18,993 bases of DNA from a virus (IMGVR_UViG_2534681765_000010); one strand, 5' to 3'; numbered from the stretch's first letter, positions 5,141 to 18,993 are shown. The notes: generated from the sequence alone by a model not told the origin. Program-made: numbers and translations.

Positions 5141-5538
5141 ACTTTAAAAAGGGCAGCAGAGCAGTCACGGAGTAAAACTGATACCACCAAACGTCACCAG
5201 AAAATTGATAACAGAGGGCGTTGCAGCGGGGTTGTCACTTAAGCGTATGGTCAACCTGGCAACCCGGTGTCTCAATGGGGGAGGAATAACCCCGCCATAC
5301 TTACCGCCGCGCCATTTCGCGGAGTGCCACAACCGGAAGCGCACGGTCGAATTAAATTTAACGACACCGTACAGTGAGACGAACTTCGCCGTGCGCTTTC
5401 GCGTTATGCCCTGGCTTTTCAGGGATATATCCTTTCAGTAAACTGTCAGTACCGGATTCTTATCCGTGTCCGGCGCACGACCACACGTGGCAGCGTGTTG
5501 GTCTCCATTTTTAACCCAGAACCTCAATGGAGGATAAA

Positions 5539-10123: not shown

Positions 10124-10395
10124 ATATCGACGCAACAATGACGATTGGTACGGCCCTCAATACGGGGCTGGCGCTTCTTGGTTGGTGCTACATCATGTTC
10201 TGCTCATGGCGGTGGCTGTCACTGATGTTACTGAAAGAATGGAATAAACGCTGTAAACAGACGCAGCGGCAGAAGGCAATGAATGCGTTTTTTGAGACCT
10301 TCGATATTGACAGTATAGAACCAGGAGAGCCAGCTCGCGTGATTAGCAGAGGTGACGTTGTAATTCTTGTATACCGGAGTGAAGAGAAAGCATAA
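10120..10395 (+). CDS. Small hypothetical membrane protein (91 aa)
   Basis: GTG start overlapping the upstream stop; hydrophobic stretch LALLGWCYIMFCSWRWLSLMLL. Confidence 0.4.
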   Translation: MNIDATMTIGTALNTGLALLGWCYIMFCSWRWLSLMLLKEWNKRCKQTQRQKAMNAFFETFDIDSIEPGEPARVISRGDVVILVYRSEEKA

Positions 10396-10509
10396 TCCAA
10401 ATCTGAATAATTAAATCCAGCACTGTAAATAAAATTTAATCCTTAACCGGAGGGATTTCTGCACCCTCAGAACATCAGGAGGCCGCCCGAAAGGGCGGTG
10501 GAGATAATA

Positions 10510-11034
10510 ATGGAAATAACTAAAGAACGATTATTGGAAATAGCAAATCTTAGTGAAAGGGCATTAAGTGATGGGAGGATTATTTCTCCTGATGCTTATG
10601 AATCAGTTACAAGTATAGAAATAATAACGATGGCCAGGATGCTTCTTGGTTGCCTCAAAAAAGAATATAAAAAAAAGGTGGATAGCAATGCTAATATATA
10701 TGATATTTTGGACAGTTGGGGGGCTTGGGCTGCAGCTGGAAATAGTTCTATCAACTGGCAGCAAGTGGCTGATAAATATAAAGATGTAGTACCTCATGGT
10801 AAGAAATTACGCCGTCAGTGTGGCAACGATGAAGGTCGTATGATTGATACCTGCATGTTGAAGCTTAAACAATATAGAATAGATGACTATGAGTTAATTA
10901 TCGCTCATTTTGTTATAGGTATATCTTTGCGTACAATAGCACGAAGGTACAAATGTTCAGATGGAACAATAAGAAAGAATATACAACTTACAATGGGAGT
11001 ATTGTTAGGATTGTCTTTTTATGTGCAATTATAG
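10510..11034 (+). CDS. Antiterminator Q-like protein (Q933-type fold suspected) with N-terminal extension; first gene of the AT-rich island
   Basis: ATG 10510 with ggag RBS; motifs LDSWGAWAAAG, RRQCGNDEGRMIDTCMLKLK and CSDGTIRKNIQ resemble the Stx-phage Q family as I recall it; AT-rich codon usage. Confidence 0.45.
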   Translation: MEITKERLLEIANLSERALSDGRIISPDAYESVTSIEIITMARMLLGCLKKEYKKKVDSNANIYDILDSWGAWAAAGNSSINWQQVADKYKDVVPHGKKLRRQCGNDEGRMIDTCMLKLKQYRIDDYELIIAHFVIGISLRTIARRYKCSDGTIRKNIQLTMGVLLGLSFYVQL

Positions 11035-11039
11035 ATATA

Positions 11040-11519
11040 TCACATGAGCCTTGTTATGTCCTTTAGACGCGACCAGGTAGTATAAAATTTTTTAAATGTA
11101 ATAAGCAGGAAAAAAATTCCCACTTGGAGTAATAGTTGGGCATATGTGTGCTCGTCGGCATCTTTTACTAGTGGGAATTTAAACTTTAGTGTATCAGGGA
11201 AAAATAATAAAATGATAAAAATAATACAAACTGATAGTAACCATCCCATAGTGGAGTGCATTTCTTCGGTCAGTTTTTTCAAATAACCAGTTTTTCCTAT
11301 ATTTCTAATTAGCGTATTATCTCTAGCTGAAGCAATCAAGGTAAGCGAACCTAAAACAAAGCCAAATAATATCCCAGAAAATGTAGAAACGGCCGAAGCG
11401 ATTGGCTGAATTTGTGCAAAATTTAGCTTTGCAGAAAGAGGCCATGCGATGATACAAAAAACAACAGAGGCTAAATTATAACCATAACTGTACAAAGTTA
11501 TCAATTTCCCCTTTTTCAT
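11040..11519 (-). CDS. Small integral membrane protein (159 aa, about 4 predicted TM helices); distal gene of a two-gene operon
   Basis: Four hydrophobic segments (LASVVFCIIAWPL; VSTFSGILFGFVLGSLTLIASA; MGWLLSVCIIFIILLFF; LLLQVGIFFLLITF); starts 16 nt downstream of the 304-aa gene; strongly AT-rich. Confidence 0.7.
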   Translation of the reverse strand: MKKGKLITLYSYGYNLASVVFCIIAWPLSAKLNFAQIQPIASAVSTFSGILFGFVLGSLTLIASARDNTLIRNIGKTGYLKKLTEEMHSTMGWLLSVCIIFIILLFFPDTLKFKFPLVKDADEHTYAQLLLQVGIFFLLITFKKFYTTWSRLKDITRLM

Positions 11520-11534
11520 ACCATCGCTCCAAAA

Positions 11535-12449
11535 TTAATCAACTCTTTGATTGGCTACTCCAAAGTATGCCTTCAATTCATCATCTTTACTATCTTTTGC
11601 AAGAGTTAAGGCGCTCCAAATGCTGCCAACTAATGGATACCTACCTCCAAGTTCAACATCTGTGTAGTAGACTAATTTGTCTGCTACAAGATCGATAGGA
11701 TGCTGTACACCGGTCTCAATGTCTTGGGTTTCTAGTTTAAGTTTTTCAACCTCAAAAGTCTCTAGTGTTTCTTTAAAGGCTCTTTTTAGTTGAGAACCTA
11801 GATAGCGAGATTCAGGATCTTCAGAACGACTATCCCCACGTAATGTAAGATTTACTTTGGCAGAATTAGTACCATTTAGAGTGGCTATCAATGCATTGTT
11901 GAAGTTATGTTCAACATCCTCATATAGTTGCACATTCTTTGGCCGAGCGATACCGATTTCTAGAGTTTTGATTCGAACTTCATTACGCATCAACCACTTT
12001 AAACTACTGGTCTGAATGATGGGATTAACAGTTGTATTTTGTGAACTGTTGGAAAGATATTTACTTAATAGCACCCAGCCATAACAGAGTCTGTTTCGTT
12101 GAATTATTAAAACTGAGTCTTGGGTATAAAAATGAAAATAAGCTTTTTCTAATAAGTTTTCATTGATTTCAAGTTTAATTTCTCTTTCTTCACCTCCGGC
12201 TACAGCAACATGAGGGAGATTATTGGTTCTGTGTTTTCCTATAACTCCCCTGAAACCATAGTCGGTTCTTTCCATGAAGCGCATTTCAACTAGTTTATTT
12301 CCTATTTTACGTACAGTTTTGTCTCGGCCTTCGCTGTATGACTCAAAAATTTTTGAAAAAACAGCTTCAGGTGAATTAACTCCTGCATTTGTATCAGTGC
12401 TTATAGTGTGACATTGATAAAAATCGAAGAAAAAGCGCTTGCTAGCCAT
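11535..12449 (-). CDS. Hypothetical 304-aa cytoplasmic protein; promoter-proximal gene of the two-gene operon (candidate sensor of an abortive-infection pair)
   Basis: Long uninterrupted ORF, AT-rich; no Walker A or other motif I recognise; preceded by a ~390-bp AT-rich promoter-like region (12450-12840). Confidence 0.7.
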   Translation of the reverse strand: MASKRFFFDFYQCHTISTDTNAGVNSPEAVFSKIFESYSEGRDKTVRKIGNKLVEMRFMERTDYGFRGVIGKHRTNNLPHVAVAGGEEREIKLEINENLLEKAYFHFYTQDSVLIIQRNRLCYGWVLLSKYLSNSSQNTTVNPIIQTSSLKWLMRNEVRIKTLEIGIARPKNVQLYEDVEHNFNNALIATLNGTNSAKVNLTLRGDSRSEDPESRYLGSQLKRAFKETLETFEVEKLKLETQDIETGVQHPIDLVADKLVYYTDVELGGRYPLVGSIWSALTLAKDSKDDELKAYFGVANQRVD

Positions 12450-12897
12450 TGCAAAAATTTCCTGTAAAAAATAATTACATACTTAAGATACTACAAAGAA
12501 TAATGCGTACGCAAAATTTTTTGTTGAGTAGAATATGTTCGCGGGGTATTTTTCGTTAAGATATAATTACCATGGTAACTTTTGCGTTGGTAATGCATTA
12601 TGTGGTGGAGAAAAAGAGAGAGTCTTATCTTTAAATTATCGCCAGCCTATATGACTATATGAGTAGTATTTAGATGGGAAATTGTTGAGTTATTGAAAGG
12701 AACCATAACCTTTATGTAAAATTACTGCGGGTGCTTGAGGTTATCTGTCTCAGGCATGCCACCAAAAGGCAGATAGAGAAAAGCCCCAGTTAACGTTACG
12801 CGTCCTGCAAGACGTTTAACATTAATCTGAGGCTCAATCTATGAACGGCAAATCTAGGTTAGCCTCTTACGTGCCGAAAGGCAAGGAGAAGCAGGCT

Positions 12898-13053
12898 ATG
12901 AAGCAGCAAAAGGCGATGTTAATCGCCCTGATCGTCATCTGTTTAACCGTCATAGTGACGGCACTGGTAACGAGGAAAGACCTCTGCGAGGTACGAATCC
13001 GAACCGGCCAGACGGAGGTCGCTGTCTTCACAGCTTACGAACCTGAGGAGTAA
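12898..13053 (+). CDS. hokD: Hok/Gef-family type I toxin (51 aa), HokD/RelF-like
   Basis: MKQQKAMLIALIVICLTVIVTALVTRKDLCEVRIRTGQTEVAVFTAYEPEE: single TM helix then the conserved RKxLCE..R....EVA.F.AYE Hok pattern; aaggag RBS 10 nt upstream. The track ORF start at 12841 is an in-frame extension that is probably not translated. Confidence 0.7.
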   Translation: MKQQKAMLIALIVICLTVIVTALVTRKDLCEVRIRTGQTEVAVFTAYEPEE

Positions 13054-13121
13054 GAGACCAGGTGAGGGAGAAATCCCTCGCCACCTCTGATGAGTCAGGC
13101 ATCCTCAACGCACCCGCACTT

Positions 13122-13148
13122 AACCCGCTTCGGCGGGTTTTGTTTTTT
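13122..13148 (+). terminator. Rho-independent terminator (aacccgc-ttcg-gcgggtt + T-run) downstream of hok
   Basis: Perfect 7-bp GC-rich stem, 4-nt loop, then tgtttttt; read directly. Confidence 0.65.
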
Positions 13149-13220
13149 CCTGGCATTCTGGTTTACAATTCGCACGCCAGCCTGAACAACTGGCACCTGC
13201 TGCGCCAGCAGAGACAACCG

Positions 13221-13493
13221 ATGGCGCACAAAACCAAATTTCACAATTCTGATACCGCCCTTGCCATCCGGCATGGGCGGCGTTCACACGCATTTAAAAC
13301 CGACTGGTACCAACACCCACCATGTACTGAAGAACAGGCCGAATGGCTAATTCATAACTACCGCAGACGCGGATACGAGATTAAGAAAGCCCTCAGCCTC
13401 GATTATCGTCACTGGATAATCTATGTCAGGCTCCCTTATTCCGAACGCCCACCGCGTCCGTCCCGCACATTCCAGCAACGCATCTGGAGGTAA
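13221..13493 (+). CDS. Hypothetical protein (90 aa), Rem-like by position (between hok and the DUF968 gene, as in Qin prophage)
   Basis: ATG 13221 lies downstream of the terminator; the track ORF from 13062 runs through the terminator and is probably over-extended; stop taa 13491-13493 immediately precedes the next gene start. Confidence 0.35.
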   Translation: MAHKTKFHNSDTALAIRHGRRSHAFKTDWYQHPPCTEEQAEWLIHNYRRRGYEIKKALSLDYRHWIIYVRLPYSERPPRPSRTFQQRIWR

Positions 13494-14916: not shown

Positions 14917-15602
14917 ATAACCAGTATTTACAGTTTGTTCGTGAGCAACTCATGATTGCCACCGCCGATTTGAGTGGATCAACAAAAGGGCAGCTTGAAG
15001 CCTGGCAGGAGAATGCCATGTTCGATACAGGGCGTTACAGGCGAAAAAAAATCCGGTACCGCGATGAAGTGACTGGAAAAATGATAACGCGGGATAATCC
15101 ACCAATCCCGGGAAAGCAATCGCTGGCGAAAGGTTCATCAATTGCCCTGGTCAGTCCGGTTGAGTTTTCGACATCATCATGGCGACGCGCCGTTCTGTCT
15201 CTTGAAGAGCATCAGAAGGCGTGGGTGCTGTGGGTATACAGTGAAAATCCGAGTTGGGATTATCAGGTGGTCATTGCGAAATGGGCGTGGGATAAGTTTC
15301 AGGTGCATTTTGGCACCAGAAAAATTACAGGGAAAACGCTTGAGCGTCTGAAGAAATTAATCTGGCTGGCGGCGCAGGATGTCAGGGGGAGGATTACTGG
15401 GCGTGACGTCTACCAGCGACAGGAACTTGCCAGACTGTGTGGAGTTAAGCCTGACAACTGGAGCCATAATTATGCGAACTACTGGCGTGAGATGTGCGAC
15501 ATTTTTAAGAAACTCGATACAGAATCCTTGATTTGCACCGTGAAAATGAGATCGCAACAAAAAGCGACCTTTTCACGACGAGATATTGCAAAAGTCAATT
15601 AA
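14907..15602 (+). CDS. Late-gene antiterminator Q-like protein (QuuQ-type, assigned mainly by position after rusA)
   Basis: 231-aa ORF overlapping rusA by 10 nt and followed directly by a strong intrinsic terminator; the sequence itself is not one I can match confidently. Confidence 0.5.
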   Translation: MRMNNQYLQFVREQLMIATADLSGSTKGQLEAWQENAMFDTGRYRRKKIRYRDEVTGKMITRDNPPIPGKQSLAKGSSIALVSPVEFSTSSWRRAVLSLEEHQKAWVLWVYSENPSWDYQVVIAKWAWDKFQVHFGTRKITGKTLERLKKLIWLAAQDVRGRITGRDVYQRQELARLCGVKPDNWSHNYANYWREMCDIFKKLDTESLICTVKMRSQQKATFSRRDIAKVN

Positions 15603-18917: not shown

Positions 18918-18993
18918 GGCCCTTTAGCTCAGTGGTGAGAGCGAGCGACTCATAATCGCCAGGTCGCTGGTTCAAATCCAGCAAGGGCCACCA
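18918..18993 (+). tRNA. tRNA with CAU anticodon, Ile2 (lysidine)-like by resemblance to E. coli ileX/ileY; Met cannot be excluded from the anticodon alone
   Basis: 76 nt ending CCA; acceptor stem ggccctt/aagggcc; D-arm gctc...gagc; anticodon loop ctCATaa; T-arm gctgg-ttcaaat-ccagc. Folded by eye. Confidence 0.85.

Follow-up and report, generated by a model that had tools for sequence, protein, structure and literature searches.

A hok/mok/sok cassette, predicted to be complete, at the hokD position of a lambdoid prophage

A gene for a Hok-family toxin lies at the edge of an AT-rich island in a viral sequence of 18,993 nucleotides (IMGVR_UViG_2534681765_000010; this whole stretch is referred to as the window), and relBE, its neighbours in Escherichia coli K-12, are not beside it. 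Is it a stand-alone toxin gene from which relBE was displaced, or is it part of an antisense-controlled cassette that was here before relBE? An earlier note, made from the sequence alone, described the gene, expected an antisense RNA for it, and favoured the displacement of relBE by the island. The region from about 12693 to 13149 is very probably a hok/mok/sok cassette of the type I toxin-antitoxin class, complete in all its parts, that a lambdoid prophage carries as cargo at the hokD/hokW position and that acts by the mechanism set out below. It belongs to an already known kind, with a relative, hokW-sokW, whose type I character has been established by experiment. As posed, the question of the cassette's nature matters little, the locus being a textbook hok/sok system that PGAP labels hokD in thousands of genomes. 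Positions of all features are given in Table 1.

Table 1. Features of the cassette and of the adjoining island, numbered from the first letter of the window.
Feature	Position	Strand	Basis
Small membrane-type partner gene, 159 aa, four hydrophobic segments	11040..11519	-	ORF analysis
DUF6731 gene, 304 aa, predicted RexA-type fold	11535..12449	-	Fold comparison
hok/mok promoter: -35 TTGAAA (12693-12698), 18-nt spacer, -10 TAAAAT (12717-12722)	12693..12722	+	Promoter scan
Predicted full-length hok mRNA, ~420 nt	12729..13149	+	Ends inferred from Rfam start and terminator
hok leader, Rfam RF01794 ('sok')	12729..12903	+	Model positions 1-157 of 157
tac-type 5' element GGGUGCUUGAGG	12729..12740	+	Paired with 13103-13115 in full-length MFE fold
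Predicted Sok RNA, 71 nt	12779..12849	-	Coordinates transferred from annotated 933W sokW by alignment
Sok-target hairpin, stem GAGGC (12829-12833) with GCCUC (12862-12866)	12829..12866	+	Truncated fold and Rfam consensus
Hypervariable block: mok start region, codons 2-5, Sok 5'-tail target	12834..12855		Pairwise differences
mok-type frame, 70 aa, in frame with hok (19 codons + Hok)	12841..13053	+	ORF list
Predicted sok promoter: -35 TTGCCT (12884->12879), 17-nt spacer, -10 TAACCT (12861->12856)	12856..12884	-	Read from sequence
hok Shine-Dalgarno AAGGAG, 9 nt 5' of ATG	12883..12888	+	Read from sequence
hok toxin gene, 51 aa, MKQQKAMLIALIVICLTVIVTALVTRKDLCEVRIRTGQTEVAVFTAYEPEE	12898..13053	+	Pfam PF01848 and identity to K-12 hokD
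fbi-type 3' element CCUCAACGCACCC	13103..13115	+	Pairs with mRNA 5' end
Intrinsic terminator AACCCGC-TTCG-GCGGGTT, then TTGTTTTTT	13122..13149	+	Terminator scan

The toxin gene and its messenger

The toxin gene was found as the earlier note had described it, over the same span. Pfam HOK_GEF (PF01848) covered the 51-residue Hok/Gef-type protein over the full profile (E=3e-23). The coding sequence was nucleotide-identical to K-12 hokD and the protein 100% identical to HokD; PGAP labels the gene hokD in enterotoxigenic E. coli (ETEC) genomes that are 99.8% identical to the cassette. Expression of the HokD peptide has been reported to be toxic (bioRxiv 10.1101/2025.08.07.668861). The ribosome-binding site and terminator that the note had ascribed to the gene were both present, the latter as a GC-rich hairpin (13122-13139) followed by a T-run, and this terminator was found in most related modules. 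The mok ATG (12841) has a GAGG Shine-Dalgarno sequence 8 nt upstream, and the mok frame matched the PHROG entry 'MokW-like host killing' (E=7.7e-33). Its in-frame layout with hok is that of K-12 mokC/hokC and of 933W mokW/hokW. The motif UACG occurs at 13036-13039 (Tyr47 codon TAC followed by G), and the same motif is present in K-12 hokD. For K-12 hokD mRNA, A-to-I editing (6%) that yields a Cys codon at a conserved C-terminal cysteine position has been reported (PMC12214031).

A generic scan of 12400-13300 returned a single sigma-70-like site, the hok/mok promoter, which matched 10 of 12 positions and ended 7 nt short of where the Rfam model begins. Homology between prophage contexts begins at about 12712; the -10 hexamer therefore lies within DNA common to other prophages and the -35 hexamer within DNA specific to the island. 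The 169-nt leader matched RF01794 over its full length, scoring 108.7 bits (gathering score 59, E=2.8e-24). Since RF01794 is oriented as the hok-sense leader, the match is on the plus strand.

The full-length mRNA was folded from 12729 to 13148 (minimum free energy -168.1 kcal/mol, z = -7.43). All 64 related modules in which both elements are covered formed the 12 pairs between tac and fbi (100%); these never varied, so that the helix is backed by conservation and not by covariation. When the mRNA was truncated in silico at its 3' end (12729-13100), the 5' end refolded onto 12781-12787, and the predicted fold reproduced the Rfam consensus, with the GAGGC/GCCUC hairpin presenting the mok start. 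The GAGGC arm of this hairpin contains the mok Shine-Dalgarno sequence. Its closing stem was kept in 16/16 alleles, whereas above it no stem was conserved. In the terminator, four pairs varied on both sides among related modules. The proposed structure was then compared with 66 aligned modules: 91.1% of cells were paired, against 38-47% when the partners were slid, a fraction inflated relative to the slid controls because the structure came from the window sequence itself. Changes on both sides of a pair numbered 14, against 5.0±1.5 in shuffles, and none of 500 shuffles reached this value. PGAP calls a 59-aa hypothetical protein on the minus strand (13095-13274) in the 99.8% identical genomes; the call overlaps the terminator and fbi and is probably spurious.

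The Sok RNA and the proposed mechanism

A Sok-like RNA had been expected on the minus strand of the leader, between 12700 and 12900. By alignment, such an RNA is predicted within this interval (12849->12779), at the position that sokW and sokC occupy. It would consist of a 14-nt single-stranded 5' tail (12849->12836), a long hairpin (12835->12781) and the 3' end GGGGCUUUU. It folded as the tail and one hairpin (-29 kcal/mol, z = -5.47). The predicted Sok overlaps the mok start by 9 nt, as K-12 sokC/mokC and 933W sokW/mokW do, and it starts 7 nt past the sok -10. The -35 hexamer of the sok promoter is overlapped by the hok Shine-Dalgarno sequence on the opposite strand. The promoter was kept in 79 related loci (pairwise difference 0.03), with variants limited to TTGACC, TAATCT and CAATCT. 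Of the two signals that the note had suggested looking for on this strand, the promoter was recognised by direct reading, and neither promoter nor terminator was flagged by the generic sigma-70/terminator scan. The promoter was passed over because its -10 matches only 3/6 positions. Sok was therefore identified by homology, position, folding and conservation. The signals of the cassette are not due to chance, given the Rfam E-value of 2.8e-24 and fold z-scores of -7.4 and -5.5.

The tip of the Sok hairpin carries an 18-nt extension (12795-12812) relative to K-12 hokC, hokB and the Rfam consensus. This extension is common to prophage loci of the hokW/hokD type and is missing from a minority leader variant (7/80 loci). 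RefSeq annotation of the matching ETEC genomes lists the hokD coding sequence and has no mok or sok features, so the antitoxin goes systematically unannotated.

The plasmid R1 hok/mok/sok system (parB) has the leader architecture described by RF01794 and the same layout of toxin, mok and cis-antisense Sok. Whereas R1 mok is read in a different frame from hok, the two share a frame here and in hokC. K-12 hokC/mokC/sokC aligns across the whole module, with Sok at the same position relative to mok. The closest named system was mokW/hokW/sokW of the Stx2 phage 933W and the Sakai prophage Sp5 (AF125520; Takada et al. 2021, PMC8621323), to which 94% of the cassette aligned at about 91% DNA identity; mokW-hokW-sokW of VT2-Sakai is likewise about 91% identical. 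The 933W locus is of the same family and architecture and is also carried by a lambdoid prophage. Between 933W and the window there is no difference in tac, fbi, the Sok hairpin or the sok promoter hexamers; in both, mok is in frame and 70 aa long, the toxin has 51 aa, and Sok, of 71 nt, covers the first 9 nt of mok. The two differ in the allele of the Sok tail and mok codons 2-5 (AACGGCAAATCT here, CTGAACACATGT in 933W) and at the Hok C-terminus (…FTAYEPEE here, …FVDYESEK in HokW). The 933W locus also lacks the K-12-type terminator, its DNA is unrelated from about 13126 on, and its flanking genes are different. Between toxins of the HokW type and R1 Hok, identity is about 44% (PMC8621323).

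The mechanism proposed for the cassette takes its inferred steps from R1 hok/sok and Sp5 hokW-sokW. A stable mRNA of about 420 nt would be made from a constitutive promoter. With its 5' tac clamped to its 3' fbi, it would be inert for translation and unable to bind Sok. Slow trimming at the 3' end would take off fbi, and the leader would then refold, as it did in silico, into a long 5' hairpin and a hairpin presenting the mok start. Translation of mok, running in frame into hok, would drive Hok synthesis. Unstable Sok (71 nt) would be transcribed from a separate promoter, located between the start codons of mok and hok, and its 14-nt tail would pair with the mok start region, blocking mok translation and leading to cleavage of the duplex. 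Were Sok synthesis to stop, Sok would decay and, by analogy with its relatives, the 51-aa Hok would enter the inner membrane and depolarise the cell. Prophage induction, loss of the element or shut-off of host transcription by another phage could each stop Sok synthesis.

For hokW-sokW, HokW was toxic, and mutations in the sokW -10 abolished antitoxin activity; the antitoxin effect required the sokW promoter and, in part, RNase III and Hfq (PMC8621323). On induction, Sok was lost and HokW was made in a RecA-dependent manner, and a hokW-sokW deletion mutant released about half as much phage (PMC8621323). By analogy, the cassette most likely does what was measured for hokW-sokW: after induction it would bring forward growth arrest and lysis and raise phage release about 2-fold. 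It might instead serve prophage addiction or the exclusion of other phages. Its role is uncertain, as post-segregational killing was not seen with the chromosomal hok loci put to the test. Because several C-terminal residues and the Sok-tail allele differ, the size of the HokW effects may not be the same for the cassette here.

Variation at the Sok target

Differences between loci were concentrated in a block of 22 nt. Among loci with an identical Hok protein (L009-L088), a choice that favours closely related coding sequences, the mean pairwise difference was 0.306 in the block, against 0.033 and 0.024 in the remaining leader; for comparison, the Sok hairpin gave 0.013 and the third codon positions of hok gave 0.012. 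Variable columns made up 15/22 of the block and 29/147 elsewhere (Fisher p=9e-6). About 10 major block alleles were found behind the identical toxin, with the allele of the window in 7/79 loci. The mok ATG was invariant and the Mok N-terminus variable (MNGKSR, MLNTCR, MLYTRR, MSHKCR and others).

Two explanations for this variability were rejected. Neutral drift does not account for the block having diverged about 25 times as much as the third codon positions of hok. Nor did the arms of the target hairpin co-vary: RNAalifold kept only the invariant GAGGC/GCCUC stem and gave no compensatory pairs. Tentatively, and at less than even odds, the block may be a specificity determinant that is actively diversified or shuffled among otherwise near-identical prophage cassettes. 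If this holds, the roughly 10 alleles would keep cassettes that share a genome (up to 6-10 in one E. coli genome) orthogonal to one another. Alternatively, an incoming prophage would escape a resident Sok acting as an 'anti-addiction' RNA. A block that sets specificity would supply natural orthogonal antisense/target pairs and a simple model for the coexistence of multiple RNA-controlled toxin copies in one genome. Copies within the same genome were available as two pairs only; the tail alleles differed in one pair and agreed in the other. No prior description of Sok-tail hypervariability was found in the literature searched, to which Pedersen & Gerdes (1999) and T1TAdb did not belong.

At the Sok-tail target, K-12 hokC (L003) and 933W hokW (L008) do not differ in their allele, which is ATGCTGAACACATGT in both. 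SokC made from the chromosome could possibly cross-react with the phage hokW mRNA, which would amount to cross-repression between chromosome and phage. In one leader allele, present in 11/79 loci (among them L010, L020, L029, L032 and L046, and further L061, L065 and L086), the distance from mok to hok is 56 nt and not 57. Mok is then a 19-aa peptide with its stop codon overlapping the hok start (ATGA). This suggests that coupling in the 56-nt allele proceeds via termination-reinitiation, with no in-frame read-through product; what is conserved would therefore be the coupling and not the Mok peptide.

The upstream slot and the relBE arrangement

The gene order relB-relE-hokD-rem-ydfU that the earlier note gave for the cryptic prophage Qin is indeed that of K-12, where hokD is also known as relF and the locus as relBEF. 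RelBE did not prove to be the usual neighbour of hok. In 5426 complete E. coli genomes, a leader of the type seen here, counted at >=80% coverage, was present in 4087, the relE-hokD junction in 1165 and the junction of hok with the island in 19. Eighty IMG/VR loci with an identical HokD comprised 70 with a leader like that of the window, 7 with a second full leader variant in which the Sok hairpin is shorter, 2 with a relE junction and 1 with another truncation; the full leader was thus present in 77/80 phage contigs.

The comparison with Qin that the note had recommended told against its reading. K-12 homology was confined to 12884-13145, beginning 14 nt 5' of the hok ATG and ending past the terminator, so that K-12 holds a truncated copy. 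Within these limits the hok coding sequence, fbi and terminator are identical or nearly so, and the gene has the same position ahead of a DUF968 gene (ydfU). Upstream of 12884, K-12 has the 3' end of relE, which abuts the hokD ribosome-binding site, in place of the promoter, tac, the entire leader, the Sok gene, the sok promoter and the mok start. No relE remnants were seen at 12450-12728 in the K-12 alignment. Since K-12 is without everything upstream of 12884, the relBE-hokD arrangement is, as judged from the alignment, the derived and truncated state, and the cassette here is the intact one. In K-12, hokD is this same gene with all that once lay 5' of the ribosome-binding site exchanged for relBE. 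Published accounts state that relBE integration cut an ancestral ORF of about 70 codons to 51 codons (PMC6379469) and that hokD was inactivated through rearrangement (PMC12214031). The K-12 relBE-hokD locus is then to be seen as a rearranged exception, and loci like the present one as the intact reference form. One further truncated hokD (L085, IMGVR_UViG_2548876852_000004; hok ATG at 701) carries the K-12 breakpoint motif …ACAGGAGAAGCAGG with non-relE DNA upstream, and has apparently been rearranged again or moved.

As the note had observed, hok lies at the edge of an AT-rich island, with a GC fraction of 0.34-0.40 over about 10250-12750 and 0.50-0.55 on either side. The upstream neighbour of the cassette is the DUF6731 gene on the opposite strand, without homology to relE. 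Intact cassettes elsewhere are preceded by QueH, by unrelated hypothetical genes or by the same island. Upstream flanks fell into 24 clusters among 76 loci; the downstream flank of the window belonged to the commonest cluster (28/72). The scatter of the upstream flanks shows a cargo slot of changing content next to a conserved cassette, hok/sok; RelBE is one occupant of this slot. Among the occupants seen here, RelBE alone destroyed the leader. The proposal of island insertion or replacement thus held in that the upstream DNA is replaceable cargo, and failed in that relBE was not what the island displaced. Downstream, the order hok, Rem-like gene, DUF968 gene was kept in part. The DUF968 protein is 86% identical to YdfU. 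The 'Rem-like' label of the 90-aa ORF between them (13221..13493) was rejected, as BLASTP against K-12 Rem returned nothing even at E<=100; the ORF belongs to phrog_1212, of unknown function, and matches Rem in position only.

Three other readings of the locus were weighed against an intact, working cassette. The one favoured by the earlier note, that relB-relE-hokD is ancestral and that the AT-rich island was inserted beside a stand-alone hok or replaced relBE there, can draw on the Qin gene order, on the YdfU-like protein downstream and on an island that is compositionally foreign and as rare at hok as the 19 junctions indicate. It is nevertheless very improbable, as the point at which K-12 homology begins marks K-12 as the rearranged copy, both published statements oppose it, intact leaders outnumber relE junctions (4087 to 1165 genomes, 77 to 2 phage contigs) and the flanks upstream of intact cassettes are unrelated to one another. 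It is likewise improbable, if slightly less so, that the cassette is an inactive relic like the five K-12 hok loci, a prophage hitchhiker making negligible Hok and Sok. Tested chromosomal hok loci have been suggested in print to be inactive on the strength of the missing post-segregational killing, and the sok -10 is weak (3/6). Against this, no IS element, frameshift or truncation was found in the cassette, and every regulatory element is intact and near-invariant in at least 60 independent prophage contexts whose flanks are scrambled. Its 91% identical relative hokW-sokW works in the prophage that naturally carries it (PMC8621323), and divergence focused on the Sok-recognition block would be hard to explain if the locus were dead.

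The remaining reading concerns the island itself. Fold comparison gave the DUF6731 protein a predicted RexA fold, and its 159-aa partner matched the PADLOC RexB profile weakly (E=0.0015); sequence-level PADLOC, PDB-sequence and literature searches with the DUF6731 protein were without result. The two genes are adjacent again in unrelated Vibrio and Marinobacterium prophages. With moderate confidence, the pair is best read as a RexAB-like exclusion pair, and such a RexA-fold/RexB-like pair would give DUF6731 a plausible function. That hok/sok and this pair together form one composite membrane-depolarising defence unit is highly unlikely: they adjoin in only 19/5426 genomes and in 0/76 IMG/VR loci, each module is widespread without the other, and in a published survey hok was not enriched in the vicinity of defence systems. 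The rarity of the junction also makes any functional coupling of hok to the island unlikely.

Several other features of the prophage were recorded. A DicF small RNA was found at 5151-5202 on the minus strand (Rfam RF00039, 66.9 bits), and dicB and DUF1391 genes lie near DicF in the matching ETEC genome; the immunity and dic region of the prophage is therefore Qin/Rac-like. Within the low-GC island and ahead of hok (10498-11034, plus strand), a gene for a Q-family antiterminator was found (PF06530, E=2.8e-30). A DUF1133 gene was annotated by PGAP in the matching genome downstream of RusA (about 14925-15467, plus strand), at the position of the Q antiterminator in related prophages, and the prophage may have two late regulators. 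A tRNA gene with the anticodon loop CAU (18918-18990, plus strand; Rfam 72.5 bits) lies downstream of a DNA methyltransferase gene, and PGAP annotates the equivalent gene in the matching genome as tRNA-Ile.
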